A stretch of 64,000 bases of DNA from Eledone cirrhosa. Lineage: Eukaryota. Location of the stretch: positions 6,138,001 through 6,202,000 of the forward strand of contig OZ024755.1 in the NCBI GenBank assembly GCA_964016885.1, given 5' to 3'. The notes beneath the pieces are model-generated. The model worked only from the letters and a program-made list of their open reading frames with translations. It was not told where the DNA came from and searched no databases. A program made the position numbers and the translations under genes. This document shows positions 3,143 through 61,409 of this stretch, piece after piece. How positions within the stretch are numbered: the first letter of the stretch is position 1; every line of letters starts with the position of its first letter.

Positions 3143-3717
3143 CATACATGCATACTTACATATGCATATATAATATATATATATATATACACACATTCAT
3201 ACACACATCTGTACATGTGTGTGTGACTAAAAATTAGTAATTCAATTTTTCTGTCTGTCTATCTATCTCTTTAAGTACCTACCTACCTACCTACATATCT
3301 TTCTAGGTAGAATTCTTAATATGAGACTAAAAATGTGTTTGAAAAACATGAAATAAGAATCGTGGGAAATGTTACATCTTGTTATAGTTCAATTAAATAC
3401 TTCTGGGACAACGGAAATATTTCGGTTTTCATATAATAACCTTGTTTAGGAAAGCTTACCTAATGTTTATATAACTTTATTCTTCCAACAGACAATAATA
3501 TAAGTTAAATACATACGAATCTCAATCATATTTCGGATAAAATTCAATAATTTCCGCGAGGTTGATAATGTCATTAGGAAAAGTGTGAATGCTGCTACAT
3601 CCTACAAATTTATATATATGTATAGTTTAGTATTTAATCCAGTTCTTTGTATTTTGAGTTCAAATCCCAACAGAAGTGAGCTTTACTTTTTAATTTTGCT
3701 AAGTTGATGAATAAAAT

Positions 3718-3900
3718 AATTGTTTCTACTTTTGGCTCAAGGCCAGCAATTATCCCAGTGTATTACTGGTACTTTATTTTATCGACCCCGTAAGGATGAA
3801 AGGCAAAGTTAACCTCGGTGGGATTTGAACTCAGAATGGCAAGGGCCGTAACTATGCGTCAAAGCATTGTGGCCGACCCTCTACCGATACTGTCAATCCG
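3718..3900 (-). mobile_element. SINE (major family)
   Basis: Same consensus as 2516-2701. Confidence 0.85.
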
Positions 3901-8425: not shown

Positions 8426-9780
8426 TAGACGTGGTGTTGGATGAGGCAATATTTATGGCAGAATGAATGATATGAATTATATGAATTCAAATTACATTAT
8501 GGTTTATTTTCACATTAGAATATCTACCTAACATAATTATGGAATGTAACAAGCTCAGGGAAAATAACGTAAGTGGGCCAATGTTGTGAATCTAGATAAA
8601 TGGGTTAAGGAGTGATGTATTGATATGAACAATTAAAAAATGTTTGTAAATGTAGAAACAATGTTACGATGAATTTTTAGCAGTAATATTCTATGTAATA
8701 ATAGAATAAACTAAATCATAATGAGGTAAAGACGAAACATTCTCTTAGTTGATCCGTTTCCGGCAACCAAAGATCAGGTTTGTCATAAACATGTAAAATA
8801 TGTTTGTGAAATCGATCCCTAATTTCTTGAACTTATCTCTCTTTACCTTCGAGAGGGATTTACGATGACTATGAGGTCAGTCTCTTGCTGCTTTGTTTCT
8901 TCAACTAAGAAGAATATTACAAGAAATATTCTTGATGATAATGATTTCTAGTATAGAAACACCGCGACCAACACAATCACAGCCACCACCGCTGCTACGA
9001 CCAGCACCATCGCCACCACCACCAATGCCGCCACCACCATAACCACCGCCAACACCAATGCCACCGCCATCACCACTGCCACCAAAACCAACACTATGAC
9101 CACCACCGCCACCAATGCCACCATCACCACCGCCTCCACCATCACCATCACCGCCACCACCATCACCACCGCCACCAAAACCAACACTATGGCCACCACC
9201 ATCACCACCACCACATAAAAAACAAATGTGATAAAATAGAACAAGAAATAAAGGGAAGGCTGATATTTCTTTTCTTTGATGTACAAACCTGTCGTTAAAT
9301 AACGGTGTTGATCGGTCTAAGATTGAATATAAAAAAAAATAAAACCTCTCGTCAAGGGAGCTTTGTGTTGAAGCTAAATGGATATAGAAAAAACTAGCTA
9401 TAATACTAACACTGAACCATGATTCCATGGAAATTATCTCAGTATGTCAACTGATAATTGATAGAGTGTTGTTATAGAAGTAAATCTAGGGACGTTCGTT
9501 CGGGGTTTCCAAAGTTAAAATGTTTAGCTCTCCTTTTCAACACAGTAATGTGAAGATAGTGAAAAACAAAATGCGACAAAAGCAAAAGTAAATAGTAGTA
9601 GCAGCGATATAGAGCAAGAAATAATTAGAAGGATACATTAGCCATGATCCAAAATCGAACCACTACAGAGACATAAATCAAGATATAATGAACAAGGTAA
9701 TTAGTGGGACGTAATTACGAATATAATAATGATGATTAATGGAAATAAATGAAACAATGCTGTGGATAATAATAATAATA

Positions 9781-10366
9781 ATTGTTTCTACTTTAGGCAC
9801 AAGGCCAGCAATTACCCAGTGCATTACTGGTACTTTATTTTATCGACACCGTAAGGATGAAAGGCAAAGTTAACCTCGGCGGGATTTGAACTTAGAACGT
9901 AAAGGGCCATAACTCTGTGCTGCAAAGCATGGTGTCTGACGCTCTACAGATACTACCAATCCACCGCCTATTAATAATTGTTTCTACTTTAGGCACAAGG
10001 CCAGCAATTTTAGGGGGCGGGGTAAGTCGATTAAATCGACCCAGTGCATTACTGCTACTTTATTTTATCGATTCCGTAAGGATGAAAGGCAAAGTTAACC
10101 TCGGCAGGATTTGAACTCAGAGCGTAATCCTGAGCCACCCAACGCTTCTAGGGCACCCGGGGAGGACACCCTCCCCTCCTCAAATTAACCAGCCTACAGG
10201 CGTATGGTCAGAGTAGGTCCACTCACAAGTAATAATAATTGTTTCTACTTTAGCACAATTTGAAGGGGAGTTGGGAAAGTCGATTTGAACTCAGACCGTA
10301 AAGGGCCATAACTCTATACTTCAAAGGATGGTGTCTGATGCTCTAACGATACTGCCAAACCACCGT
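9781..10366 (-). mobile_element. Cluster of three SINE copies (one full, one 5'-truncated, one internally deleted)
   Basis: ATTGTTTCTACTTTAG.. termini at about 9781, 9977 and 10237, each with the family body. Confidence 0.85.
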
Positions 10367-11886: not shown

Positions 11887-12073
11887 CAAGGATTGGTAGT
11901 GTCGGTAGAGCGGCGGACGCCATGCTTTGCAGCAAAGAGTTACGGCCCTTTATGGTCTGAGTTCAAATCCCACCGAGGTTAACTTTGCCTTTCAATCTTA
12001 CGGTGTCGATAAAATAAAGTACCAGTAATACACTGGGATAATTGCTGGCCTTATGCCAAAAGTAGAAACTATT
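11887..12073 (+). mobile_element. SINE (major family)
   Basis: GATTGGTAGTGTCGGTAG...GAGTTCAAATCCC...GTCGATAAAATAAAGTACCAG...AAGTAGAAAC. Confidence 0.85.
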
Positions 12074-12506
12074 ATAATTTTGTTGGCTGAGTTTTGCCTT
12101 CTGCCTACACCACAACAACAATAACATAAATAGCAACAGTGGTCAAACATTTGGAAGTAGTTCTCCATTGAGGATCTTAACTGAGTTTTATAGAGTGCCT
12201 GAGTTTTGTAGAGTGCCTGAAGTATTAACAGACTCTGAAGAAAAGTTCCAGTCTCCGAGACATGTTCCTTGATACGTTGGAGTTATGCGTTCGCCATGAG
12301 AGACATTCAATGACTATGAGATCTAGCATTTAAAGCGACCGTGAGAGATTTATGGAGGTGGTACGATTTTTATTTCTTGATAAATGTAGTGCTTGTGTTA
12401 TCTATATATATTTTCTAGTAAACGACCTGTGGATACTTTTGAGGTTTCTCTTCACGGAGGCAATATAGTCTTGATGTTTTGCGTCAAGGCTGCATGTGTG
12501 TGTGTG

Positions 12507-15106: not shown

Positions 15107-15257
15107 CTGATATAAGAAAGGTGAGATTTCAGTTAAGAGGAGAATATACATGATATTATTAAATCAAAAGTAAAAACAGAGCAAATAAACCGAAAGAACT
15201 TAGTAAGAGCATATGGAATAGATTGTCTCGATACCTACCTGTATGTATATTTTACTG

Positions 15258-15299
<42 letters not shown>

Positions 15300-15301
<2 letters not shown>

Positions 15302-15474
15302 AAACAGTATGACCCCGACGGCAGAGCTCAAGACGTTTCGACGGGTATGTCTGTGGAAACGGCTTGAGCTTTGCCGTCGGTGTCAAACTTTTTCCTATTA
15401 CCCATTCTACTACCCTAAGTATTGAGTACTCTGGTGCGTTATGGTCCATCTGGTTCCTTACCACAATTCCTTCG

Positions 15475-15476
<2 letters not shown>
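15300..15476 (+). mobile_element. TA-targeted hairpin element, family A
   Basis: Seven copies: 15300-15476, 18439-18575, 31795-31987, 33012-33123, 36421-36617, 40553-40741 and 52657-52720. The family carries an HHR 3' half (GAAACGGC..GCCGT-C) and a GTATTGAGTAC tail. Confidence 0.85.
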
Positions 15477-15523
<47 letters not shown>

Positions 15524-15720
15524 AATATATATATATAAAGAGAGAGCAAGAGCGAGAACGAGAGATTCTTATAGAGCTGCAAACCACTAACAGTGAATTA
15601 TTTCTGTGCTTCATTCATTATACTTATATATATATGTATATATATATATATACTCACTCATTCACTCACACATATACACACCCACTCACTCATTCACTCA
15701 CACACATATATATATATATA

Positions 15721-16142
15721 TGTAAAAGTTCTATTTAAATTGTTGGGATACAACAAGCAAATATTTTTATAACTGATATAAAGCACTAAACAAATTATTG
15801 GAGTAAAAATACGATATATTAACAAATGGAAACTATATTAATAAAACCATATTTATTTCATTATACATATTTCAAGGGGAGCTTCCAACAGAAATGGTCG
15901 CATTCTTTAAGGTATGTCAATATTTATTTATAGAACTGATCTATATTATATTTTATATGATGAAAGCACACCATAATTTAACTTGGTGGCCTTGAAATAT
16001 GTATAATGAAATAAATATGGTTTTATAAATATAGTTTCCATTTGTTAATATATCGTATTTTTACTCCAATAATTTGTTGAGTGCTTTATATCAGTTATAA
16101 AAATATTTGCTTGTTGTATCCCAACAATTTAAATAGAACTTC

Positions 16143-16146
<4 letters not shown>
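15721..16146. repeat. Fold-back element with ~157-bp inverted arms
   Basis: 15721-15877 pairs with 15990-16146 with few mismatches. TA flanks. Confidence 0.9.
15949..16013 (+). ncRNA. Hammerhead-like motif (C3>A variant) within fold-back element 15721-16146
   Basis: TATTTTAT-ATGATGA-AAG..CACCA/TGGTG..CTT-GAAAT ATGT AT-A-ATGAAATA. All three stems pair. Confidence 0.6.
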
Positions 16147-16190
<44 letters not shown>

Positions 16191-18606: not shown

Positions 18607-18780
18607 TAGAGATAGAGAGAGAGAGAGAGAGAGAGAGGGGGGTAGCACACTGGCAGGTAGTATCCGTAGTGGTAGAGTACTCAGTCCATGGGACGAGTTT
18701 GGTAGAAGTAGTAACACAACAGTTAGTTCACCATATCGAGAAAAATTCCTTTCTCCTTAGACTCTGAGCTGAAGATCCGC

Positions 18781-18818
18781 TGAGCTGAAGATCCGCTAAG
18801 GTGAAACAATTGTCCTCA
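18781..18818 (+). ncRNA. Minimal type I hammerhead ribozyme
   Basis: TGAG-CTGAAGA-tCCgctaaGGt-GAAAC AATT GT-C-CTCA. Stem III is the palindrome ACAATTGT with a GUC site. Confidence 0.8.
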
Positions 18819-19189
18819 TTATGGTGAACTAACTGTTGTGTTAATACTTATATATATATGACTACAAGTTTGCGTACAGGTATAAACATGTATGTATGCG
18901 TTTATGAATATTTATGTGTACGCGTGTAATACCTGATTCAATTTCTGAGCCGAATCACAGGAGATAGATAGGTTTCATAGTGTGAGCTTAATCACCACAG
19001 CAAGATGAAATCTAGCTGTGAAAGTTTGCAGAAATATATCACTATTATAAACCTCTATGGTATATCGCTGGTGCTTTCAAAGTTTATCACTTTCCCCTCT
19101 TCCTATAATGCAATAGTTTATATAGTTGTGTCGACGTTTACATTACGTAGTTGTTACTCTCAATCTCTTTGCTGATATATATCTCTCTC

Positions 19190-26996: not shown

Positions 26997-27711
26997 CTGC
27001 AGTATATATATATGTGTGTGTGTGTGTGTGTCTGTGTATATATATATATATATATATGTACATACATCGTGGTAGAACGTAAATAATTATGTTTTTATAG
27101 AGGTGAAGAAGAATTTTAACTATCAGTCGAGAGTATAATGTTTGCTCACATTATAATTGATGTGATTTTTGTTGTTGACGAATACATGAAATAGAAGTAG
27201 AGCTACTTGAATCATTGAGGCCTGACTGAGTAGAGATATTGTATTGCTAGTAATGGATATATGTGCTACCATGTACTTGGAATACCTATGGCAGATTGGT
27301 TAAGACTTTCGCTGCATAATCTTGAGGGACTGGGTTCGGCACTACTTCCTGACATTAAGAAAATGTTTTTCTTGATGGATGTTCCGTTTGTTAGATCAAC
27401 AGTGAGTCTACACGTTAAATTCGTGTGTATGTAGACTAGGTATTCCACACACACGTGTAATGTTGACATAAACATTAGGAAGATTCAACGTGACAGTGTG
27501 TGACGAATGTGGGTCTATGAATTACAGGTACAATTCATATGACGGGCTTCTCAACAGTTTCCGTATACCCAATATCAATCGTAAGGCTTGGTAAAAGTAT
27601 TGAGCTCAAGAAAACTCACAATAGTGTTAGACCCGGGTCCTTAAGATTGCAATTCAAACCTCTGAGCCACATTACCATGCTGCTTCCACATTGCTATAAT
27701 AGAGATGTGTA

Positions 27712-27901
27712 ATAGTTTCTACTTTTGGCACAAGGCCAGCAATTATCCCAATACATTACTGGTACTTTATTTTATCGACCCCGTAAGGGTGAAAGGCAAA
27801 GTGAACCTCGGCGCGATTTGAACTCAAAACATAAAGAGCCGAAACTCGTTACTGCAAAGCATGGCGTCCAACTCTCTACCGATACTGCCAATCCCCCGCC
27901 C
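27712..27901 (-). mobile_element. SINE (major family)
   Basis: Full family consensus. Confidence 0.85.
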
Positions 27902-29669: not shown

Positions 29670-29840
29670 CACACACACATACATCTATACAATATATATA
29701 TACACACACATATACATCTATACACACACACATACATTATATATATACACACACACACATATACATCTATACACACACATACATTATATATATATACACA
29801 CACACACACATATACATCTATACATTATATATATATATAT
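28975..29840. repeat. Compound TA/CA microsatellite
   Basis: Direct reading. Confidence 0.9.
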
Positions 29841-30007
29841 ATTGTTATACTTGGGGAGGGTCATATTTGTGTAATATTGCCAGAATTAATAACAGAACAC
29901 ACTCACTGTTTGGTTCGCGGAAAGCGAAAACCAACCAAACAGTGAGTGTGTTCTGTTATTAATTCTGGCAATATTACACAAATATGACCCTCCCCAAGTA
30001 TAACAAT
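29841..30007. repeat. Palindrome with 75-bp arms and a 17-nt loop
   Basis: 29841-29915 pairs with 29933-30007. The terminus ATGACCCTCCC.AAGTATAACAAT is shared with 5530-5553. Confidence 0.9.
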
Positions 30008-31492
30008 ATTTGTTTCGACACACGATTTCATATAAAAAACCTCGCAAAACTATATATATATACACATATCTATACATTATATATATATGGTAGTTTTCAT
30101 ATTTAGAAAGATAAAATTGATCTTGTGAATATCTATGTAATTAAAATGGTGCTAATCAGCAATAGAGAGTGCATCGCCGCCAGTTACGTTCTGCATTACA
30201 CCTCTCAATACTTACTGCGCAGCCATATTGGATATATACGTAACTACCATAAAAGCTTGGCTTTCTTTAAGTTTACAACTATATTTTATATAGCTGAAAC
30301 ATTTTATATTCACATTATACATATACACCGAATTAGTAATGGCAAGCTCAGATTTTTAGTGCATTTCGCCATAAATATATTTAATGATTGCAGATTGCAC
30401 CATTCGTTGAAATTTAGTTATTATTTTATTTTATTTTATATATTTATATATTTTTGTTCTTTTTAAATAGATAAAAAATAAATTGAAATAAATCTTTACA
30501 CTTCCTTTACCACGTTTGATGCAAATCCAAGTGGAAATTTTTTCACACTCCATAAATGATATACTTTCATAGCTGAGAATATTATTATTATTATTATTGT
30601 TGTTATTATGTAGCTGTTTGTTTATGTTTATACTTGGTTTTGTTCTTTGTTTCACATGATTTCAGGCAAATTGTGCAGGAATCATAATGATAAACAAATT
30701 TACTTTCCTTCAAAATATAATAAATTAATAAATATATATATAATACAGAAATATATATTAAAAAAAAAGAAAAAAAAAAAAAAAAAATCTTGAAACATCT
30801 AAATTCCGAATGAATACTGTTAAACATTTTTTTATTAAACCAACTCATATTTGATATGAAAGCATTTCCTATATAAGTAAGTTATTTAGGAAAAAATTGT
30901 ATGAAAAATCTCTGCGAAAATGTGATAAAATAAAGTTATATATAATAAAATAACGAACAGAAGTTAAGATACATGTTACTACTACTACTACTACCACCAC
31001 CACCACCACCTGTTACTACTACTACTACCACCACCACCACCTGTTACTACTACTACTACCACCACCACCACCACCTGTTACTACTACTACTACTACTCTC
31101 TCTCTCCTCTTTTCACATATCTCGTCTTTCTCTCCACCCACTCACTTCATCATACTACTACTTTTACTACCATTACCACCAGCACTACTACTACCACTAC
31201 TACCACCACCACCACAACTATTAGTACTTTTTAAATAAAAAATATATATGGATTAGTTTTTCTAGGAAGCTATATGTAACATTATTATTCTGTCTGTATG
31301 TTTCAATTATGTGCAATTGATACAGTATCAATATTTTGGAGAGAATTTTACAAGCTCGTAAACTGTAGCGTGTGTCACATCTTTAGCAAATCAGCAATTT
31401 ATTCCCGTTTATCTATTTATTTTGGTTTTGTAATCGTTAGTTGAAGGTGGCTAGGTGTCAGTATTGAATGCGACTCTAGAATGGTGTTTCGG

Positions 31493-31785: not shown

Positions 31786-31794
31786 TATATATAT

Positions 31795-31987
31795 AACAAA
31801 GTAAATTGGTAAGGAACCAGATGGATCATAACGCACCAGAGTACTCAATACTTAGGGTAGTAGAGTGGGAAATAGGAAAAAGTATGACCCCGACGGCAGA
31901 GCTCAAGCCGTTTCGACGGCTATTTCCGGACGTCCAGAAATAGCCGCCGAAACGGCTTGAGCTCTGCCGTCGGGGTCATACTTTTTC
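31795..31987 (-). mobile_element. Family A copy with 56-bp-arm palindrome (31876-31987)
   Basis: Axis between 31931 and 31932, with TA flanks. Confidence 0.85.
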
Positions 31988-32025
<38 letters not shown>

Positions 32026-32115
32026 TTCTGTAAAGTGGTAGCTATGGCGCTTCCGTAGGCGGTATGCCAAAATTACCACTCGATATTCATCAGAGTAGAG
32101 TGTATATATATATAT

Positions 32116-32368
32116 CAAGAAAACGAAAAATCAGTGATTCATCTGGACTTAGTTTATTTCTTGTTACAAATGTTTCGCCGGCATGTAGCTCGAGTCATGG
32201 TCCTTGTATGGATCTGGCTGATTCTACTTCTGCGGGTTCTTTCAGACACGTCTGAAGTAGAATCAGCCAAATCCATACAAGGACCATGACTCGAGTTACA
32301 TGCCGGCGAAACATTTGTAACAAGAAATAAACTAAGTCCAGATGCATCTCTGACTTTTCGTTTTCTTG
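32116..32368. repeat. Palindrome with 115-bp arms
   Basis: 32116-32230 pairs with 32254-32368. The tail is homologous to about 18310-18392. Confidence 0.9.
32162..32248 (-). ncRNA. Hammerhead-like motif with long stem II region, in palindrome 32116-32368
   Basis: TGT-CTGAAAGA...GCCGGC-GAAAC ATTT GT-A-ACA followed by AATAAA. The core has one extra A. Confidence 0.5.
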
Positions 32369-32404
32369 ATATATATATATATATATACTATCTCAAAGGT
32401 ATAT

Positions 32405-33934: not shown

Positions 33935-34404
33935 TCTATATCTATATATAATTATCTATATCTAATATAAAAGATTGGAACTCCCATCATCCTTTTGAAA
34001 AACGTGGACCAACCTTGGTTATGCAATGGCATACGCTTTACAGTCAGGAGGGTTATGAACCATGTCCTAGAGGTCCCTATTCTTGGAGGATATCATCAAG
34101 GAGAAAATGTATTTGTTCCCAAGATTCCTCTTGTTCTTTCCTCTACCGAGCTGCCATTCAAATTCTCAAGACTCCAATTCCCTGTTAGAACAAGTTTTAC
34201 TTTGACCATAAATAAAGTGCAGGGTCAGAGTCTCAAAGTTGTAGGATTGAATATGAGGGAATCAACTTTTATGGACAGTTATGGACAGTTATATGTAGGT
34301 TGTTCACGAGTGGGAACATCTAGAAATCTTCATATACTATGCATGAACGGTAAACCGAAGAATGTGGTGTATATTCTAGAAGATTCTTTACTGTTTATGT
34401 TTAG

Positions 34405-34448
<44 letters not shown>

Positions 34449-34552
34449 TAACCTCATAATGTAAACCAGACAACACATCCAATACAGTCATTTTATTTTC
34501 TACCTCTCTTATCTTATCTGTTTACCCGGGCAAAGCTGGGTAGGGCAGCTAG
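33935..34552 (+). mobile_element. Internally deleted (non-autonomous) Helitron retaining the PIF1-type helicase C-terminus
   Basis: 5' A|TCTATATCTATATA terminus. Frame 33971 to about 34372 reads KIGTPIILLKN...LCNG.R...RLQFPVR..F.LTINK.QGQSL..VG...GQLYVGCSRV (RepHel helicase C-terminal motifs). 3' hairpin TACCCGGGCAAAGCTGGGTA is followed by CTAG|T. Confidence 0.88.
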
Positions 34553-35074: not shown

Positions 35075-36420
35075 ATAAACGGAAGTTAAATGCATGTATA
35101 TATATATATTCGTGTGTAATTTAGAAGCAGTCAAACAGAAATAATTACGGTGAAATTTATATTTTATTTACCGAGATGCTACATCAGCATCAAATTATTA
35201 ACTCCAAGATCTTCAGTCCCGTCTCAAGAAATGAGATTTAATAGGAAAATTAGAAGACATCACTTTCTTTGCTGCCATTCTTTCTCTCCCTTCACCATAG
35301 AGAATAATATGACAAAGACATTTCACCACATAGATTGATCTATGTGCCAGCTATAATTTTCTTCTCATCGTATGCGTGTGTGTGTGCATATATATATATA
35401 TACACACACCACCGTCGCCATCTTTAACAGAGCAATACACTACCACTACCATCACTACCACTACTCCTACCAACAATAACCACAAGCCCTCTTTGTACTA
35501 TCGCCATTAGTAATTACTTTCTATCAATGGTTTCGTCTTATTGTAGTCCCTCTTATTGCCATGACGATGTTCATCATCCTTCATTGAAACATAAACACCA
35601 CCGCCATCTTTATCATCATTAAGCAAAACAAAATATCATTATTGATCATCGCTGTGCCTTATATGATTGCCGAATTACATGATCATCATCAGCCTCAGCG
35701 TTGAGTTATCACCCCTATTATCAATAACTTCTTAAAATTTTCTCTTCATCATTAATTACCCAGCCTATCTCATTCTCCCGTTATTACTATCTTTCTTCTT
35801 AATTTGTCTCAATTTCTCTCCTTCTCATTATTGCACACCACTTGATGTTCCCTTTCCTTAGTTGCTGCACTAAACTCCATTACAGGATGATTGTCATTCA
35901 AGTACCATTTGAAGAGCTCATACGGTTCGATAGATTTCCAATGATGTACTCATTAACTGACATTGTGTTACACATCATCTATTCCAATTAATGAATACTT
36001 CTTTCATAACACATTTTAACTTGCATTCATCAATAAAAATGACATTCCCTTAAAATGTTAATTCAGAGAATGAAATTGTGTTCCATTACTCTACCTACTT
36101 ATGGTGTCGTAGCGGCGCCGTTTTGGGTATTCAAATATGGAGTCGCTCTCTCTTTCTGCAGAGAAGACTACTGTCGATATCATCAATGGAATAAGGAGCC
36201 GGAGAGAAAGTAAGAAATATAGATATAAAAACAATCACCCCCGGTATTGGACACATATTTTATCTATCAACATCGAAAGGATGAAAGGATAAAATTCGAA
36301 AACTGGAACAAATTCTGTTCCCTTTGTCCAGCTGAATGTGTACGAAGGTTACATGAAATTTGAAAACATACTGACACACACACACTCACCTTCCCATATA
36401 TATATATATATATATATATA

Positions 36421-36617
36421 GCGAAGGAAGTGTGGTGAGGGAACAGGTGGGTCATAAGGCACCAGAGTACACGATACTTTGGGTAGTAGAGTGGGTAATA
36501 GGAAAATATTCAGGACCCCGACGGCAGAGCTCGAGCCATTTCGACGGCTATTTCTTCTCCAGAAATAGCCGTCGAAACGGCTTGAGCTCTGCCGTCGGGG
36601 TTATGAACCTTTTCCTA
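36421..36617 (-). mobile_element. Family A copy
   Basis: Same tail and hairpin, with TA flanks. Confidence 0.8.
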
Positions 36618-37600
36618 CATATATATAATATATATATATATATATATAACTTGATATATTTTCAGGTGCCAAAGAGAAGGGAAGTTTCGTAGGTGTCACA
36701 ATCAATCGCGTACACTCTGCTTCCTATGGAATTTATGCTAATTCCTAATGTATGTTTACTGTTATAATTCGAGAAAAGGCTAGAAATATTTGTAGAAACT
36801 ATATTCTATACATATAACATATAAGAGAAATAATGCCATACAGTATTGAATTAAGGATTAAAATATGGATACTTGAAAATCCTGTTATTTCGCCAGCTGT
36901 TGTGGATTAGCCGAGAAAACTTTGAACTATTTCTATATATAGTAGTATATAAATATCAAAAGAAAGATAGAAAAGAAAAAAATGAAAATGTTAGGGAAAG
37001 AAAACAAAACAAAAAACATAATAAATGTGAATCCTTATCCCATATGAAAATGACGGTCGGTTGAAGAGGATGAATGCAACGAAGTGTAAAGTGAAAAATA
37101 GATTAAAACATAAAAGAAGAAATGAAACAGCTTTGATGAATCTGTGCAACATGGCGGAGTATTATCCTCCACAAAAATATGAACAGTGACAAATAAAATG
37201 AAATTTAAATAAAGGAGAAAAAAGAGAGAAATTGTGATTCAGCTATCTGAATTGCTTACAACACCAATAAAATATTGAGTTGAAGCATCCCTAAATGATT
37301 GGTGTATAGTTAATCTAATAATATTAAAGATATATACTGTGATTTATCAGGATTTAAATATCTAAGTCACGTTACATATTTGAGTGTATACGTGTAGCAT
37401 ATACTCATTCATATAGTTATACGCATGCATGCATACACACTCGTGTATATATATGCGTCCAAGCATACATTCGTTCAAAAGCTTTAGAGATACACACACA
37501 TATATATATATATATATAAGTTTATGCCGGGTTCAATCGGGGGTAACAACAGTAAGTAAGGTACTCAATACAAAGCAGAGTATAAATATTTAATATAGAA

Positions 37601-37653
37601 AAGCTTCTACAGGTCTAGAACTGTTTCATTCGTGAGAAATCATCAGGAAGCTT
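37601..37653 (-). ncRNA. Type I hammerhead ribozyme in loop-less palindrome 37594-37707
   Basis: AAGCTTC-CTGATGA-tTTCtcacGAAt-GAAACAG ttctagac CTGT-A-GAAGCTT. Stem I is 7 bp with a GUA site. Confidence 0.82.
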
Positions 37654-37702
37654 CCCGATAATTTCTCACGAATGAAACAGTTCTAGTCATGTAGAAGCTT
37701 TT

Positions 37703-37757
<55 letters not shown>

Positions 37758-40508: not shown

Positions 40509-40552
<44 letters not shown>

Positions 40553-40554
<2 letters not shown>

Positions 40555-40741
40555 CGAAGGAAATGTGGTAAGGAACCAGACGGACCATAACGCACCAAAG
40601 TACTCAATACTTAGGGTAGTAGAGTGGGTAATAGGAACGAGTAGAACCCCGACGGCTGAGCTCAAGCCGTTTCGACGGCTAATTCTGGAGTAAAAAAAAA
40701 AAACGGCTTGAGCTCAGCCGTCGGGGTCCTACTCGTTCCTA
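40553..40741 (-). mobile_element. Family A copy
   Basis: Arms at 40632-40672 and 40701-40741, with TA flanks. Confidence 0.85.
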
Positions 40742-41202
40742 TATATATATATATATATAGATATATATATATATATATATATAGTAATAATAATAATAAA
40801 TCCAAAGAGGGCTCGATAAGGATAAATATATATCAAATGTATAAGAACATTAGAACAAATATGTATTAAAATAATAGATTTTAATAGAGAATAGAAGAAG
40901 AATTCACCCCAGTAATTAAATTGAATTGTATTAACAGAATTATTTGAAACAATGAAAAGCAGAGCTGACCTTGGCAAGGTTTGACTACACGGTGGAGAGA
41001 CTCGGAACGAATATCACCAGCTACTATCCGACGCTCTCAACCTTTTAACAATTCCCTGCTTATTGACCACACTATGTAGGAATATTCAAAGAACAAAGAA
41101 TACGGATGGTGGTGTTGGTGGTATATTTATATATATATATATATCAATGTGCATTTATATATATATATATGAATATAAGTGTGTGTGTTTATATCTCTGT
41201 AT

Positions 41203-42865: not shown

Positions 42866-42951
42866 CATATATATATATATATTATGAAGAGAGAAGAAAC
42901 ATTTAGATATAATTAGTAATAAAATGTATCATACCTAAACTGCTCCTAAAT

Positions 42952-43039
42952 TCCTCGACTACGTAGTTTCGTGGCATAAACAAAAACAATATATCAAAGA
43001 TATAGAGTCCTTGCGAGGTCTGCCAACTTATCAAGAGGA
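42952..43039 (-). ncRNA. Mirror copy of the U3-A8 hammerhead
   Basis: Reverse complement of 43587-43674 within the inverted arm. Confidence 0.82.
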
Positions 43040-43586
43040 TACCTCATTTTACTAGTCTCAAGAACGCGTCTACACGACGTGAGAAAGAATCCCAAAAGGC
43101 GGAGGGGGAGATAGTCACGCGATATAACGGTCGAGAAACAGAGCTAAGCCTCTTATAACCACGAAGAAAATACCACGGAGGCGGTATTCATATCGAGGCC
43201 GTAGAAGAGGTAGTGAAGAAGGCGAGAAGTATGAGTAATGGAAGCCTTAACTCACAGTTGGGTGCGGATGCATTCATGTATATATGTGTGTGTCCGCATG
43301 TATCTGTGTGTTTCTAAATATATTAATAACTCCCTCTGGTCGAGCAATCTTTGAAGTGTGGGGACAACTGGAAAGCTTCCATTACTCATACTTCTCGCCT
43401 TCTTCACTACCTCTTCTACGGCCTCGATATGAATACCCCCTCCGCCTCCGTGGTATTCTCTTCGTGGTTATAAGAGGCTTAGCTCTGTTTCTCGACCGTT
43501 ATATCGCGTGACTATCTCCCCCTCCGCCTTTTGGGATTCTTTCTCACGTCGTGTAGACGCGTTCTTGAGACTAGTAAAATGAGGTA

Positions 43587-43674
43587 TCCTCTTGATAAGT
43601 TGGCAGACCTCGCAAGGACTCTATATCTTTGATATATTGTTTTTGTTTATGCCACGAAACTACGTAGTCGAGGA
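43587..43674 (+). ncRNA. Type I hammerhead ribozyme, U3-A8 core variant
   Basis: TCCTC-TTGATAA-GTtGGCA...TGCCAC-GAAAC TACGTA GT-C-GAGGA. Stem III is a 10-nt palindrome. Confidence 0.82.
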
Positions 43675-43905
43675 ATTTAGGAGCAGTTTAGGTATGATAC
43701 ATTTTATTACTAATTATATCTAAATGTTTCTTCTCTCTTCATAATGTATTTTTAACTCTGATACTGGTTCAGTCTGGTTCAAACTGAATTGGTCTGTCCC
43801 AGTCATTCATTGAGCAACATCGGTGAAGTTGGCACCCTTAACTCACAGTTGGGTGCGGATGCATTCATGTATATATGTGTGTGTCCGCATGTATCTGTGT
43901 GTTTC

Positions 43906-43939
<34 letters not shown>

Positions 43940-48246: not shown

Positions 48247-48426
48247 TATTGGCAGTATCGGTAGAAGGTCGGACGCCATGCTTTCAGGCATAGTTACGTC
48301 CCTTTACGATCCGAGTTCGAATCCCGCCGAGGTTGACTTTGCCTTTCATCCTTACGGGGTCGATAAAATAAAGTACCAGTAATGCACTGGGTAATTGCTG
48401 GCCTTGTGCCTAAAGTAGAAACAATT
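48247..48426 (+). mobile_element. SINE (major family)
   Basis: TTGGCAGTATCGGTAG A box, GTTCGAATCC B box and family body. Confidence 0.85.
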
Positions 48427-49753
48427 ATATATATATATAGCTCTGATTTATCTGAATTATTGAGCCCTCTGCCGCTCATATCGAATTTTGTTTATCGTGA
48501 ACTCGTGCGCCGATTTTTCGATACTCGATTATTCTACTATATATATATATATAAATATGTATATATATATAAATATGTATATGTATATATATATATATAT
48601 ATAAATAAATACACATAAATGTATACACACACGCATACACACACCCACATGTGTGTGTGTGTGTGCGTGTGCGTGTGCGTGTGTGTGTGTGCGCGCGTAT
48701 TTCGTTAAATAATTGTTTCTACTTTTGGCCAGCAATACTTTTGGCCAGCAAGTATTCCAGTGTATTACTGGTACTGGTGTGTATTTCGTTAAAAAATCTT
48801 AATGAAATATTACTGCTATATTTAGTCGTATTTCATGGCTGACTATCTTATACGATGTGATAAATCATTCTCTAACTTTTGGCTTCCGATGCCAGAAAAC
48901 CCATTCCAACATTCATTATTAAATTAAATAAACTGACAGTCACAGCTGGCCTTACTCTAAGGCTATAGTTACAATGACCATCTACACATGTCTATATGTA
49001 TATACGAGTACATATATGTATATGATATGATGTATATAATATGATATACATGTATATGTATATGATATGATATATATATATGGTTACATATGTATATATG
49101 CATGTATGTATATACGTATGCATATCAATTCAGGAATATACATATGTACATGCATGTATATATATATACGTATACCTATATATACACATACATATACACA
49201 CATACACCTACACCTATATATACACATACACCTATATATACACATACACCTATATATACACATACACCTATATATATATATATGTATATATATATAAATA
49301 TATATATATATGCCAAAGTTACCATCTATCGTATCAATAATAAGGACCACATATTGCAATAAGCTGGGGTTCAAGAGACCCCCTTCCTTTTTAATAAGCG
49401 ACCAAAAATGAGATCTATGAGATCTACAGGGTGTACTCATGTAGAACATCTCAACATTCTACTGACGAAGATCGCGGAGGAACCCACATCACGAGGCGAA
49501 GCACAAATAAGGGCAGCAGCAACAAACTCCCTTTGCACCAATGAGCTGCCACGGAGAGCTCTATTATAGAATTTGTAACATATATGGCGGTGCCCCAGCA
49601 TGGCCTCAGCCATACTTCATATCTATTTAAATATATTTTTGGCATCATCATTAGTAGTAGTACTATTAGTAGCAGCAGTAGTACCAGTGGTGGTGGTGGT
49701 AGTAGCAGTGGTGGTGGTGATAGTAGTAGTAGTAGTGGTGGTAGTTTTAGTAA

Positions 49754-49859: not shown

Positions 49860-50238
49860 CGTTTCTTATTTAGGTACAAGGCCAGCAATTTGAGGGGAGG
49901 GGAAGTCGATTATATCAACCTCAGTGCGTGACTGGTACTTTATTTTATCGACCCAGTAAGGATGAAAGGAAAAGTTCACCTCGGATCATAAAGGGCCGTA
50001 ACTCTATGCTGCAAAGCATGGCGTCAGACCCTCTACCGATATTATCAATGATTAATAATTATTTTTACTTTTGGCACAAGGCCAGCAATTATTCCATTGT
50101 ATTACTGGTACTTTATTTTATCGATCCCGTAAGGATGAAAGCCAAAGTTGACCTCGGCGGGATTTGAACTCAGACCATAAAGGGCCGTAACTCTTTGCTG
50201 CAAAAAATGGCGTCCGACTCTCTACCGATACTGCCAAT
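49860..50238 (-). mobile_element. Head-to-tail SINE dimer
   Basis: Two family units joined by AATGATTAATAATTATTT. Confidence 0.8.
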
Positions 50239-52587
50239 GAATAAAGATGAAAATAACAAGGAAGAATGAGTCACATTAGGAATTAGATTAGTAGAGGAAG
50301 GAACACAAGGTAAAGTTAATCATTATCAGATTATTTCTTGAGTAGGTTATTGTGTTGGCTGATGAACTTCCAGCTGGCTTTTCATCAAGAAGACCTCTTT
50401 ACTAATCAATAAATGGGGTCAGGGTTGATATGATGCCAGTGGTAGAAGATGTGGGGTACTAGATGTTGTGTTACATGACTTATTGACCTAATATTGGTGA
50501 GTTGAGACTGTCAGCACATCATACTCGCAATGTATACTTCATAATATAAAGATAAAAATAATCTCACGCATACACGCACACACATACACACGCACACACA
50601 CACACAACCTTTAGTAAGGAACACCTGTTGTAATGAAAGTCATTCATGCTATCAAATGCTCTTTCATTAAAATCCTGCCAGGGAATGAATAAAAAAGCTA
50701 AAGTATATATTCATGTGTGTTGGACCTCGGTCAGTTTCGACGAGCGGTTAAACAGTTCCAATCCACCTAATTTCCATCACACATTAATAAGTAAGTTGGT
50801 GAAATTTCCATGGTCGCGTGAAACGTTAGCATAATTCTCAGGAAGATTCAACACGAGTATGTAACAGAGTATCAAGTTTGGACATTTAAATTACAGGTAA
50901 AGTCAAACTGAAGAGCTTCCAAAATAGATTTTCCTCTACCCAACGTGGCTCACAAGGCATGGGTTAACCGAGGCCCAGGTAAACCACACTTACCCAAGAT
51001 GCTACGTAATTGCATCGAACCCAGACCTCAATTATTGTGAAGAGAACTCTTTAAGTAATCGTCAGTATTTTGTAAGTTCACAATGAATTCCTTAGAATTT
51101 GTAACACGAGATTATATAAGAATTCTGACAGTTCTTTGTACAACAGAGATTTAGAACAGAAATATTCTGCACTCTGACGAACATATTCTGCATAGGTATG
51201 TATTGTATAGGTTGGAAAATGAAAGTAGCATTGACAGCTAAAGTAGCCTTTCTTAAAACACTAATTGTTACATTATTCCAATAATAAGCTGTCACAATAC
51301 GGGTAGAACAGATTAGGAGAAATAAATAAAATAGAATGCGAATGCTTGTAAGTTCTAAATGTATAAGAAAATGGGGACTAGAACACGAAAATATCAAATG
51401 TAAATATAAGGCATTTGTCAAAAAATATCAAGGTTATATATTCCTATGATACTGTATCGACAATATTCAAAGTCATCCGTAGAATGTAATTTTGAAGGCC
51501 AGACTTGTCACATTCATTCTGAAGTTAACTGTCATTCTGAATTTAACTGAGAACTCTATTAGGATGAGGTACCCATGGTATACATTTTAACTGGAACCTT
51601 AACTTCACAAACCGAAAGAATTAATTTATGACTCGGTTTAACACCCACTTCCTGGTTCGTTGATGATTTTAACAAGTATTCCTGAGTCATTTAAATGAAA
51701 GAATATTCTTTCTTTTATCACAATGCAATATAAACTAAGAAAACATGAAAGAACAGCCGAACTCTCACCGTCATCGCCTCCATTTCTCTGGCCCTTCCTA
51801 TATTTCTGTATGGTGAGAAAATGGGGTCCCACGTGCTGGCCTCCCCACAGAATGGAGAAGGCGTTCCCCGGAGTATGGTAAGGGAAATAACTAGAACCAA
51901 CATAGTCGAACCAGACGGAAATCCAATATACTATGGTGAGGTCATCTCATATTGAAATATCTACAGTTACTTCTTCTTAAACTTACAAGTTGCACTCTTT
52001 TAAACTGGGAACAAAGTTGGAGATTTTATTTGCATTATAAATAATTGTATTTCCTTACGGTTGGTTCGTGTCTTTGATTCTATGAACAAAGAAGTGATAA
52101 GGTCGCTAAAGAATCCCTGCCGATAATGGCCTAACAGTAATATTGTATATTCCTTTGTTCAAAATCAATATTTTCAGAACAGAATTGGTATATATATCTA
52201 TATGCATACACATATATACAAACATATATACATAGTCATACATACATACATACACACATATATGTGTGCATATATACATATATGTGTGCATATCCATCAT
52301 ATATATACCTAAACGCACACATATATAATTGAATATATATGTACATATAACCCCACACAGAGGAGCCCCCCCCCATATATATATATATCAGCACAATATG
52401 CACATAATTTTCGCACATTAATGTGTTAGTGCAGTTGTAATGCTATTTTACGCAACATCTGCTCCGTTAGTAAGATATATGTGAGATTACAACAATACAA
52501 AAATAGGAAAATACGGTGGACGTCATTCGAGAAAAACAGATAAATATGCAACAGTGTATGACTGGAAATAGAGAACAGACCTAGTAC

Positions 52588-52878: not shown

Positions 52879-52901
52879 TTGTATGTATATATATATATAT
52901 A

Positions 52902-53040
52902 TAATTATGTAATAAACAGCACAATATAATTATTACATTCCCCAAGGTTTCAGGAAGTTAGACGTTTCTCTTAGAATCGTCTAACGTCGTAAAACCTTGG
53001 GTAATGGAATAATTATATCGTGTTGCTTATTACATAATTA
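52902..53040. repeat. Diverged palindrome related to the 61151 family
   Basis: Shares the tail AATGGAATAATT..TGTT..TTATTACATAA. Arms are about 62 bp. Confidence 0.7.
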
Positions 53041-53626
53041 AATAGCCCTGTCTGTACTATACATAGAGCTATCTTCTTTCCTTTAACCTTTCCACGGAAA
53101 TACTTAATATATATTATACATCTGTGTGTATGTATGTGTGTTTACGTGTGTAAATGTACTTAAGTGAACATGTGATATTCCATAAAAGTATACATATCCA
53201 TACACACTCACACGTGCAGCTAGCAAATGTATACGTGTGTCCTTCCGTATCAAGTCTGCTTATATATTAATACATTAATTTATAATGAATGTTCCGTTTT
53301 TGTTTTTTTTTTCATATTTACGTCATGCAATGTTTACGTAATATATTCTGCGCTATATATGCCAGTCTTATTAACAATGGTTTTTTTTTTGCTTGCTTCG
53401 GAAATATTTATTATTTATTTGTTTATATATTATCTAAGTTAGCTATAGTTGAGTATGTCTCTAAATTTGTTTTGATCACATGGTTGTTTGGTTACGAAGT
53501 ACAGATCTACATTAGAAGATTCCGTTGGTAACTCTACGGGAAAATGTACCCAATACATGTAGTATTGAGTACATTCTTACTTAAATTTTAATAACACATA
53601 TCTATATGTGTAAATCTCTCTCTCTC

Positions 53627-54337: not shown

Positions 54338-54698
54338 CGTGTGTCTCTGTGCGTCAGTCGTATACATAAATCACGATACATATATATGTATATACACACA
54401 CACACCACACACACACATATACATATATATATATATATATATACAGATAGTAAGTATCAGGTTTGGACGAGTTCACCTCAAAAATAAATGAACGCCAATT
54501 ATGTTATACATAATATTACACATCTGTTGCCCTGAGGTAATTTCTATTGTTCTTCTAAATATGGAAATATTGTATGGTGGATAACCAGTGTTGTTCAAGT
54601 AGCTTTTCTCTTATTGTTCAGAGCTAGCTACTCGTGCTCATGGTGTTGTCATAACCTTGGGTTGAACTACTCCAAACAGAGCAAAGGGGATATACTAT

Positions 54699-55073
54699 AA
54701 TTGTTTCTACTTTAGGCACAAGGCCAGCAATTATCCAGTGTATTACTGGTACTTTATTTTATCGACCCCGTAAGGAAGAAAGGCAAAGTTAACCTCGGCG
54801 GGATTTGAACTCAGATCATTAAGGGAGGTAACTATGCTGCAAAGCATAGCGTCCGACCCTCTACCGATACTGCCAATGATTAATAATTATTTCTACTTTT
54901 GGCACAAGGCCAGCAATTATCCCAGTGCATTACTGGTACTTTATTTTATCGACCCCCGTAAGGATGAAAGGCAAATTAAACCTCGGCGGGATTTGAACTC
55001 AGACCGTAAAGGGACGTAACTATGCTGAAAAGCATGGCGTCTGACCCTCTACCGATACTGCCAATCCACCGCC
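54699..55073 (-). mobile_element. Head-to-tail SINE dimer
   Basis: Two units with the same AATGATTAATAATTATTT junction as 49860-50238. Confidence 0.85.
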
Positions 55074-57457: not shown

Positions 57458-57542
57458 ATTCTGATGATTGAAAGCAACATTTTTTGCTTTTAAGTAACCA
57501 CTGGTAAATGGAATAATTGCCTTATGTTGTTTATTACATAAC
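57458..57542 (+). mobile_element. HHR element, single-arm copy of the 61151-61335 family
   Basis: ATT-CTGATGA-TTGAAAGCAA...TTGCTTTTAA-GTAAC (mutated GAAAC) CACTGGTA-AAT, with a shared tail. Confidence 0.75.
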
Positions 57543-57568
57543 TATATATATATATATATATATATATA

Positions 57569-57957
57569 CATGAATGTATGTATAGTATATTTGGCAATAT
57601 CCCGTATGTTTAATTAAAACCATTTAGAAGACAATACGCTATCAGTTTTAAAGTAGTGACTATGTCACTTACTTCTTTTCGGCAAAAGAAAGGAGAGAAG
57701 CTGACAGTCTGTTTCATACTGGTTGGTGGTCATCAGAGCCACGTACTCCCCTGATTCCGCCGAAAATTATAGAAGGTCGATTCTTACAGAATTCCAGTAA
57801 TAATCAGGAGCTGATTATACAGAGCGATTGCTGGTCCAGAAAAAAATAGGTATTAGGATTGGTGCTCTGAAATAGCGATGTATACATGAATGTATGTATA
57901 GTATATTTGGCAATATGCCGTATGTTTAAAACCATACGCTATCAGTTTTAAAGTAGT

Positions 57958-57995
<38 letters not shown>

Positions 57996-58052
57996 ACTAC
58001 TTTAAAACTGATAGCGTATGGTTTTCTAAATGGTTTTAATTAAACATACGGC

Positions 58053-58055
<3 letters not shown>
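57569..58055 (-). mobile_element. Non-autonomous PLE/retrozyme-like element: 316-nt unit in partial tandem plus inverted tail
   Basis: Direct repeat at 57569-57660 and 57885-57960, inverted copy at 57993-58055, internal HHR and TA flanks. Confidence 0.8.
57699..57740 (-). ncRNA. Type I hammerhead ribozyme motif
   Basis: GGCT-CTGATGA-(poorly paired stem II)-GAAACAG a CTGT-C-AGCT, with a GUC site. Confidence 0.72.
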
Positions 58056-58089
<34 letters not shown>

Positions 58090-58933: not shown

Positions 58934-60865
58934 ATATTACAGTTATTTCTCTGTTTGATAAGACATATTCTGTTCAGTAAACAAAACATATTCTTGATAT
59001 AAATATGGTAACATAAATGCCAAAGAAAACATGAATAATATCATACATCTGTGGATTTTAGATAAGGAGCTTCCAATTGCTATATTCAAGATACAGATTC
59101 AGATATGTTCTGTTTATTATCGGCGCGAAACGACATTGAGTAAAACAGAATAATACTTAGAGCTTACAATGGATTTACAATGGAGGAAAACATTTCCATA
59201 ATCCGTAACGGAGGTGAGAGAGGGGGGGGGGGGGATGAAGACGTAGAGAGAGGTTAAGGGTGAGGAATTTCATTTGAAAGAGAGTGATGATGATGATATT
59301 GATGATGATGTGGTAATGGTGATGTGGTGATGATGATGCTAGGGTGATAATTATGATGGCGATGATTAATACAATGTAGATGGTGATGATGATGATGATG
59401 GTGGTGATAATGATGATGATGTTGACGATGTTGGTTACCATTATGGTGGTGTCGATTATGGGTATAGTGACGATGATAATGGTGCCGATAGTGTCGATTA
59501 CGATGATGATGGTGCCGATTATGGTGCTGGTGTTGACGATGACGACAACGAGAATATTAATATTCAGGAAGAGTAATATGGGAAGGACAGCAATAATAAA
59601 GAGAATGATGATTATATTGATATTAAAACTGCTGTGGATAAGGTTTACAATTATCATGGTGGGCTTGATAAATATTACTCATGGTATTGTTGTTGTTGTT
59701 ATAAATGCTATTGACCATGAACATGGTAAATACGATATTAAAATTTATGCGTATTTAACAGAATATTGATTTTTTACGAAGTATCAGGGGAATTTTAAAA
59801 GCTAGAAAAATGTGTTTGGTTTATAAAAACTGTGACATTCTGATAAGTTATTAATAAAATTCAGGTAAATTATTTCTGCAGAAAAAGTCGACAGAGCCAC
59901 CCTTAGAAATAGCGTATTTATCGTATCCCGGACAATTTCAATAACGTTTACCCAGGGCGCTCCTGGCCACTCTTTACCATCATTTTAGTAGCTTTAAATG
60001 TTAGATTATCGACGTCGTCATGTCTACGACAAATGCGGAGTCCGATTCACGTAGACGGCTTTATCCAATTTTTTTTCTATATCCAAGTGTATTTTACCTG
60101 ATTTATGAAATATTATTTATGGTTTATCTGCATTGGGGAATCCTCCAAAACAAACATATTTCCTAATAGAAATTGATTAGTTTATGAGAAAATATCTAAA
60201 ACCTAAAACAAAACCAAATAGATAATTTATAGGAATACTGAGTAAAGGCATTAAAACAATAGGAGAGCTACTTTTCAGATAAATCCACAACAGAGATTTA
60301 ATCCACAACAGAAGGAAATATATGTTCAATGGTGCTGCTAATGCCCCTGAGAAAATATATGCTTGTAAAACAATTTCATCTACTTTACCATATTTTTCAA
60401 GACATGATCTAAGTCATAACTGAATTCTCTCAATATTTCATAATGGTAAAATGAAATGGAACAGAAGAAATTATAGCAGAAAGATTGATGATATAAAGAA
60501 GCGTGTAACTTAGGGATTAGAGCGTTGAGCTCACATTCGTAAAGTTGTGAGTTCGAATCCGGGACTGGATGGTAAGGAGCATTGGCGTTGTGTTTTTTAA
60601 CATAACACTTTATTTTCACCTTCCTCCAGTTCGCTCAGTTGTAGATATGAATTGCGACGTCACTGGTGTCAAGCTGTATCGGTCATTGTCTTTCCCTTGG
60701 ACAACATTGGTGGTGTGGAGAGAGGAGAGTCTGGTATGCATGCATGGGTGACTGTTGGTCTTTCACAAACATCCCTTGCCCAGGCTTGTGTCTCGGAGAG
60801 GAAGTAAACAGGCTCAAAACCTTGGTCATTCCCAACTGAAGGGACCCACGATACACACACAAACG

Positions 60866-61023
60866 TTGGACGCCATGCTTTCCAGCATAGTTACGTCCCT
60901 TAACGATCTGCGTTCAAATCCCGCCGAGGTTGACTTTGCCTTTCATCCTTACGGGGTCGATAAAATAAAGTACCAGTAATGCACTGGGTAATTGCTGGCC
61001 TTGTGCCTAAAGTAGAAACAATT
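60866..61023 (+). mobile_element. SINE (major family), 5'-truncated
   Basis: GGACGCCATGCTT...GTTCAAATCCCGCCGAGG...AAGTAGAAAC. Confidence 0.85.
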
Positions 61024-61077
61024 ATTACTATATATATATATATATATAAGTAGTAACGCAACAGTTAGTTCACCATA

Positions 61078-61118: not shown

Positions 61119-61150
61119 ACTGGTCCAGTGTTCTACCTATATATATATAA

Positions 61151-61335
61151 TATTATTATTATGTAATAAACAACATAAGGCAATTATTCCATTTACCAGT
61201 GGTTTCTTAAAAGCAAAAGGTTTTGCTTTCAATCCTCAGAATGATTCTGAAGATTGAAAGCAAAACCTTTTGCTTTTAAGAAACCACTGGTAAATGGAAT
61301 AATTGCCTTATGTTGTTTATTACATAATAATAATA
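61151..61335. mobile_element. 92-bp-arm palindrome with a hammerhead on each strand
   Basis: Plus-strand HHR at 61244-61295 (CTGAAGA, long stem II, GAAACC act GGT-A). Minus-strand HHR at 61190-61243 (CTGAGGA). Confidence 0.82.
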
Positions 61336-61409
61336 ATAATTAAGCTCTGTTGCCTACATAGAGCACTCTTTTTTCCTGGACTTTTCCGACGGAATTACTT
61401 CATTCATAT

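Follow-up and report, generated by a model that had tools for sequence, protein, structure and literature searches.

What kind of element is the 316-nt repeat that begins at 57569 of the 64,000-nt stretch of Eledone cirrhosa DNA analysed here (the window), and by which machinery did it come to lie between (TA)n tracts, partly repeated and partly inverted? We give a probability of roughly 0.75 to the reading that the locus is a decayed copy of a high-copy, ORF-less derivative, about 316 nt long, of a Penelope-like element (PLE), of the type of the animal non-LTR retrozymes. A preliminary description of the locus had related its size to that of small animal retrozymes, a reading that is supported in part, and had left a PLE-type integration mechanism unnamed; that mechanism is the subject of most of what follows.

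Methods

The family was surveyed by comparing positions 57566-57890 with four public runs at 80% likeness (X1 and X7 from organism A, X5 from organism B, and X6 from organism C). Sequence variants were taken from 40 of the 74 rows, and loose ends were taken from the rows listed, with 416 more lying beyond the listing. The hammerhead comparison with published elements covered Hydra-clade families. All papers cited below are represented by parts of their text, tables or supplements, and statements on them refer to those parts.

Architecture of the locus

The features are listed in Table 1. The tail of the unit was described earlier as recurring 316 nt further on and once more, inverted, across a (TA)n spacer, and the repeat coordinates agree with this: the direct repeat 57562-57613/57878-57929 has 96% identity at a spacing of 316 and resumes as 57628-57663/57928-57963 at a spacing of 300, the shift being due to 16 nt deleted from the right copy, and 57928-58025 is a perfect 98-nt palindrome around the (TA)n run. 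Apart from the 16-nt deletion and three substitutions, the truncated copy equals 57569-57663. The inverted copy shows no difference from the truncated copy in 51 aligned letters and three differences from the full unit in 67, and both copies start at the AUA loop of the small hairpin. When a target-site duplication was looked for, both junctions of the element were found to lie inside (TA)n; the final TATA of the left tract also matches element sequence, so that the end of the element lies between 57565 and 57569.

Table 1. Features of the 316-nt element and its junctions (positions in the window)
Feature	Position	Strand	Remarks
(TA)n tract at the 3' junction of the element	57543..57568		26 nt
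Full 316-nt unit	57569..57884	minus (RNA sense)	38% GC
34-nt tail	57851..57884	minus	from the 3' end point of this copy to the usual 3' end of the family; contains a short GCU...GAGCAC hairpin
5'-truncated upstream copy (partial tandem)	57885..57963	minus	
(TA)n spacer	57961..57992		32 nt; centre of the head-to-head palindrome
Inverted copy of unit positions 57663-57597	57990..58056	plus	
(TA)n tract at the distal junction	58053..58069		joined by ATAT microhomology
Small hairpin	57647..57672	minus	AUA loop 57663-57661
Type I hammerhead	57690..57752	minus	core CUGAUGA 57736-57730, GAAA 57715-57712, GUC 57705-57703
Hammerhead stem I	57742-57737 with 57702-57697	minus	
Hammerhead stem II	57729-57716	minus	broken in this copy
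Hammerhead helix III	57712-57704	minus	9-nt palindrome

The unit contains no ORF (the longest ATG frame, read as a tandem, has 35 codons), and the ORF for reverse transcriptase (RT) plus GIY-YIG by which an autonomous PLE is recognised is absent from it; nor do terminal inverted repeats bound the 316-nt unit. PLE insertions have been described as having partial tandems, often an adjoining inverted 5'-truncated copy, and an optional tail of 30-40 bp (PMC8557442; PMC3846280). The locus has a partial tandem with a 5'-truncated upstream copy, an inverted 5'-truncated copy adjoining the 5' end (for which a later snap-back origin is possible), and a tail in this size range, of which the outer end was seen in three runs and the inner end in this copy only. 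Taken together with the TA target, these features point to integration of the PLE type.

The window also contains an element at 42877-43914, taken as a 591-nt element from its repeat spacing of 591, in which the partial tandem is 85 nt long and the inverted arm 372 nt. As stated earlier, the two are unrelated in sequence (blastn of the present element against the window gave no match). The further statement that they share the same architecture holds for the general layout; however, the 591-nt element has no (TA)n at its inversion, its inverted arm derives from another part of the unit (an arrangement like twin priming with an 80-nt gap), and no hammerhead was found in it by strict or relaxed scans.

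The hammerhead ribozyme and its relatives

A hammerhead with a GUC site had been proposed on the minus strand, and the elements of a type I hammerhead are indeed found there (CUGANGA, GAAA and NUH, with helices I and III), the predicted cut site lying between 57703 and 57702. Among 5000 dinucleotide shuffles of the unit, such a core with at least 3 bp in stem I and in stem III arose in four, and one with at least 4 bp in stem I (plus stem III) in one. In this copy, stem I has 4 contiguous base pairs (5 of 6 pairs) and stem III has 3 bp, and stem II retains two of its four pairs with none at the base, that is, helix II is not pairable. The best Rfam match (HH9, 14.8 bits, E 0.65) is far below the threshold (gathering score 52), and the minimum free energy (MFE) fold of this copy differs from the hammerhead fold. 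The strand of helix III pairs with itself at -6.9 kcal/mol, as is expected of ribozymes with a palindromic helix III that work as dimers (PMC4209133), and efficient cleavage by a hammerhead of this shape is predicted only for dimers formed within tandem transcripts. Since there is a single ribozyme at the locus, no monomer can be released from it; this copy, with one ribozyme and a broken stem II, is probably inert.

Other copies, which the preliminary description had named as a check together with the restoration of stem II, were abundant. Parts of the stretch are present in six of nine public runs (the best share of the words of the locus being 0.31), with no RNA run among those containing it. 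In the four runs compared, the family was represented by 5344 contigs of X1, by 4678 of the 12.47 million X7 reads, and by 25 and 2 contigs of X5 and X6, respectively; the summed depth is no measure of copy number. The matches are spread over all identity bands, and the element belongs to a large and diverse repeat family.

Stem II pairs fully in these relatives. The majority letters at 57717, 57718, 57727 and 57729 give the stem ACGC/GCGU around a 6-nt loop in X1 (86-93% of depth) and X7 (449/629, 468/629, 446/488 and 293/488 reads, respectively), these being unphased column majorities, and the two X5 contigs, which are single contigs, have AUAC/GUAU and ACAC/GUGU; only these two X5 contigs cover the ribozyme, so that phasing by depth is possible. 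All three versions, from organisms A and B, pair at four of four positions. In one X5 contig, stem I is moreover paired perfectly over 6 bp, with a change on both sides, and both contigs vary at the free position 7 and lengthen the palindrome of helix III. A minority of sequences (187/488 X7 reads and 9% of X1 depth) have U.U at the base of stem II. The three fully paired versions argue that the ribozyme is real and that the present copy is decayed. The ribozyme is, as judged from these sequences, conserved in structure, the paired stems coming from other organisms or individuals and perhaps not from this genome.

Scans with ribozyme and tail patterns gave no match in metagenome contigs or in GTDB, and 0 and 1 matches in viral contigs; the sole viral-contig match (L001) is without helix I and was taken as a chance match. 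Piles of X7 read ends near 57612-57615, 57768, 57790 and 57845, together with a depth gradient, probably reflect restriction sites of a RAD library (57790 falls in GAATTC and 57612 in TTAA) and were not used. Rfam miRNA matches on the palindrome were far below the threshold.

Ends of the family and the tandem junction

In the relatives, (TA)n is joined to the element at 57851 (58 X1 contigs, 324 X7 reads and 1 X5 contig). The end of the present copy corresponds to 57881-57885, that is, it lies 30-34 nt from this outer end; because the surveyed stretch started at 57566, the inner end at 57569 could be counted in this copy only. At least one end lies away from the main site, that of an X6 contig close to TA letters at 57617. 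Overall, the family ends look fixed, not freely permuted, and free circular permutation, which had been proposed as a check for the element, is not supported, the (TA)n-joined ends piling up at 57851.

The tandem junction 57850/57851 is crossed by X1 records 6 and 7, X5 record 16 and X6 record 17, which reach just 23-30 letters on the tail side, and few records carry the tandem read-through; of the four, X1 record 6, X5 record 16 and X6 record 17 alone approach the 31-letter threshold applied at this junction. X6 record 17 has 35 further letters beyond the end of the compared stretch, and loose ends at 57836 continue towards the tail. Among the listed contigs, none spans the whole unit. A joint at which the sequence goes back by 316 was seen in all four runs; with 57851 as the usual end of the family, this joint falls inside the unit, and it was therefore rejected as proof of tandems or circles.

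Proposed origin and alternative explanations

The repeat family, the conserved hammerhead fold, the tandem read-through, the preferred (TA)n 3' end and the second end 30-34 nt from it were read directly from the records, and the following scheme would connect them. Units would be transcribed as partial or full tandems, and a PLE protein, which must act in trans as the unit is without an ORF, would nick a (TA)n tract. Reverse transcription would start inside the RNA at either of the sites bounding the 34-nt tail, with priming by 2-4 nt of AT microhomology. At this locus, cDNA (the plus strand) would have been primed from the left (TA)n tract at the inner site, 1.3 units would have been copied, and synthesis would have halted at the AUA loop of the small hairpin; the inverted arm may then have arisen by fold-back or by a second priming through the self-complementary (TA)n. 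For a Poseidon PLE, nicking of AT-rich DNA has been shown in vitro, with reverse transcription initiated at two positions inside the RNA, 3' of the hammerhead, the tail being the stretch between the two start sites (PMC11167929). An enzyme source is plausible in octopods, since 31 recently active PLE families have been described in O. vulgaris (PMC13282606).

By the classical circular-RNA route of retrozymes, to which we give somewhat less than even odds, arrays would be transcribed and self-cleaved to 316-nt monomers, and the circularised monomer would be copied 1.3 times round. The size, GC content and hammerhead type of the unit match those of repeats known to form circRNAs in coral, mussel and axolotl (PMC7229834), the unit, when folded as a circle, slightly exceeds its shuffles in stability (z -2.2; 2 of 100 as stable), and the self-pairing of the helix III strand is what a dimer-type ribozyme needs; however, just 57% of the circle is paired, and uncleaved RNA was the main substrate in the one PLE tested in vitro (PMC11167929). 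Moreover, one circle predicts repeats that are identical at insertion, whereas the truncated and inverted copies share three letters against the full unit. These are three sites only, at one of which (57630) the majority letter does not depart from the full unit in the rows listed, and they could equally be the product of snap-back or conversion at a later time. On this weak evidence, a single circular monomer fits a little less well as the template, and either a linear partial tandem with unlike units served as template or snap-back in the (TA)n added the arm afterwards. Because a fixed start site is also possible on a circle, the circular route is a variant of PLE-mediated insertion and not its opposite. 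The later origin of the arm, through a break in the (TA)n beside the element that was followed by snap-back synthesis, appears to us slightly less probable again. It would account for the arm being a sister of the adjacent truncated copy and not of the full unit (0/51 against 3/67 differences), starting at the same letter as that copy and ending in ATAT microhomology, and the palindrome formed by the arm is alone among 15 local inverted pairs listed for the window in being centred on (TA)n; yet head-to-head inverted 5'-truncated copies are a regular feature of PLEs (PMC8557442; PMC3846280), other hammerhead elements of the window are also palindromic (61148-61338, 37581-37720 and 18703-18852), and a template carrying flanking (TA)n would yield the same picture.

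Two further readings concern the nature of the unit itself. That the sequence represents no more than the terminal stump (pLTR) of an autonomous PLE, rather than a small element complete in itself, is unlikely: the period is 316 nt with no ORF, the sequence upstream of 57850 loops back into the tail both here and in records from three organisms, and no listed loose end leads into other conserved sequence, although most PLE insertions are 5'-truncated (PMC8557442; bioRxiv 10.64898/2026.07.22.740005), the ribozyme resembles those of Hydra PLE ends, and many loose-end rows lie outside those listed. That the hammerhead-like motif occurs by chance in a DNA element or satellite could be suspected from the low Rfam score and from the MFE fold of this copy, but we consider it highly improbable, and it is largely refuted, as far as sequences can tell, by the paired variants: the three versions of stem II and the variation at the free position 7 in relatives, to which are added the rarity of the core with stems in shuffles (4/5000) and the lack of terminal inverted repeats bounding the unit.

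Candidate mobilising clade

Given mobilisation by a PLE, the most likely partner of the family would be a PLE of the Hydra clade, an assignment that we hold to be only slightly better than an even chance and that is suggested by the hammerhead shape, the TA targeting and the terminal hairpin. In PMC8557442 and its supplement, 26 of 27 Hydra-clade families target (TA)n, one of them from O. bimaculoides; by our count from the table, the 9-nt palindromic helix III seen in the element occurs in 19 of 25 Hydra families (four of the other six have an ACAG..CTGT helix III), and T.T at the base of stem II, comparable to the minority variant in the X7 reads, in 14 of 25. A terminal hairpin of the form GC(T/C)C...G(A/G)GCAC was recognised by eye in four of the six novel Hydra consensus sequences there. 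Its short form is found in the tail of the element and its long form 3' of the hammerhead at 61247; the motif, which was chosen post hoc, gave nine matches at six sites in the window (0.0024 expected per 34 nt). The hammerhead of the element is 134 nt from the element end, and 150 nt separate its cut site from the hairpin, compared with 67 nt in the Hydra-like family nearby, which counts against a Hydra partner. Five short motifs of the element had no match in the part of the PMC8557442 supplement searched. As a palindromic helix III is also found in other PLE clades (PMC4209133), the assignment is not specific to Hydra; Naiads also target (TA)n in Octopus, but are without canonical hammerheads (PMC8557442).

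A more detailed reading, which we put forward tentatively and regard as rather improbable as a whole, is that octopods have a very abundant retrozyme which is an internally deleted Hydra-clade PLE and spreads from linear, uncleaved partial-tandem transcripts and not from RNA circles. With similarly low confidence, the deletion would have spared the ribozyme together with the 5' terminal hairpin and the two RT start sites. If this were true, the integration footprint at the element ends would by itself suffice to name the enzyme that mobilises an animal retrozyme, and the 316-nt unit would be a minimal cis-template for target-primed reverse transcription by a PLE into (TA)n.

Relation to known elements

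Animal non-LTR retrozymes are low-GC repeats of 150-450 bp with type I hammerheads that give circular RNAs, and PLEs have been proposed as their mobilisers (Cervera and de la Pena 2020, PMC7229834). They have also been interpreted as non-autonomous PLE derivatives on the basis of co-occurrence and pLTR phylogeny (Li et al. 2026, bioRxiv 10.64898/2026.07.22.740005), in a study that by its own statement covers mainly vertebrates. In these two sources, the mobiliser and the circular template are still argued from co-occurrence and pLTR similarity. The preliminary description had judged the size to fit animal retrozymes, and the 316-nt length, 38% GC and type I hammerhead agree with this; with no ORF longer than 35 codons and thousands of contigs and reads, the element resembles the metazoan non-LTR retrozymes (non-coding, 150-450 bp, GC <45%, high copy number) also in the 6-bp helix I, 4-bp helix II and short palindromic helix III, the tandem junction, and the proposed dependence on PLEs, and its membership in this group is likely from these sequence features. 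It differs in that the locus is a 1.3-mer with one broken ribozyme, in its cephalopod host, and in its PLE integration footprint (tail, inverted copy and TA target), of which no description was found in the parts of the two sources cited. By the definition of an active element of Li et al. (at least two units with intact ribozymes), the locus, with one ribozyme, would count as a monomer derivative; the family shows junction read-through, but in no listed contig is the unit spanned.

Like the Hydra-clade PLEs, for example Hydra-1_Obim (Craig et al. 2021, PMC8557442), the element has a (TA)n target, a ribozyme near the 3' end, a palindromic helix III (9-10 nt in that clade, several with ACAG..CTGT), and, in a minority of its relatives, T.T at the base of stem II, which is frequent there; unlike them, it has no ORF and a longer distance from ribozyme to end. 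With the canonical EN+ PLEs (Penelope, Poseidon PAc and Adineta Pen2a; PMC3846280, PMC11167929) it shares the partial tandem, the inverted 5'-truncated copy, the optional 30-40-nt tail, the AT-rich target and ends downstream of the hammerhead, whereas its whole unit is only 316 nt and its inversion is centred on a 32-nt (TA)n run instead of a short overlap or palindrome. A literature search, with most subscription papers and repeat libraries outside its scope, found no report of a cephalopod retrozyme. The present case thus offers a retrozyme-sized unit with a PLE tail and inversion footprint and a named candidate clade, which can be tested in octopus assemblies.

Other features of the window

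A 5'-truncated fragment of a second hammerhead family (57458-57541, plus strand; 94% identical to 61244-61327, with GAAA changed to GTAA) lies tail-to-tail with the studied element, the two sharing the (TA)n tract 57543-57568. Besides the family of the element, the window contains no fewer than four with hammerheads, and in each of these (TA)n follows 64-165 nt after the core. In one of them, 61148-61409 forms a head-to-head palindrome with two intact-looking hammerheads (11-bp stem II and ACCA-C-TGGT helix III), the right arm of which extends into a hairpin, GCTCTG...TAGAGCAC, similar by eye to what is found at the ends of Hydra-1/2_Ajap; judged by sequence, it is the best candidate for a Hydra-clade element in the window. 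Three further families are represented at 18785 (plus) and 61113, 37646 and 32822 (minus), again with (TA)n within 64-165 nt, and the hammerhead elements at 18703-18852 and 37581-37720 are palindromic. Other fold-back palindromes beside (TA)n are at 15706-16161, 29839-30009, 31872-31991, 32103-32381, 36499-36617, 40631-40742 and 52898-53044, several of the fold-back palindromes belonging to one repeat family (15248-15518, 31786-32025, 36396-36648 and 40511-40792).

A tetraspanin-8-like gene on the minus strand has its first two coding exons at 25717-25649 and 15127-14912. The identity of a tetraspanin exon is 88% with Octopus sinensis, 84% with both O. bimaculoides and Argonauta, and 75% with a cuttlefish, which places the host among the octopods; the element is about 32 kb upstream of the first coding exon, with no sign of a host function. 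A fragment of a Pif1-type helicase (33971-34459, plus strand; PF21530, E 1.9e-06) probably derives from a Helitron. A dispersed repeat of about 185 nt, probably a SINE, has about ten copies in the window, for example at 3716-3899, 9776-9968, 11890-12079, 27710-27901, 48248-48434, 50055-50244, 54697-55067 and 60865-61033.
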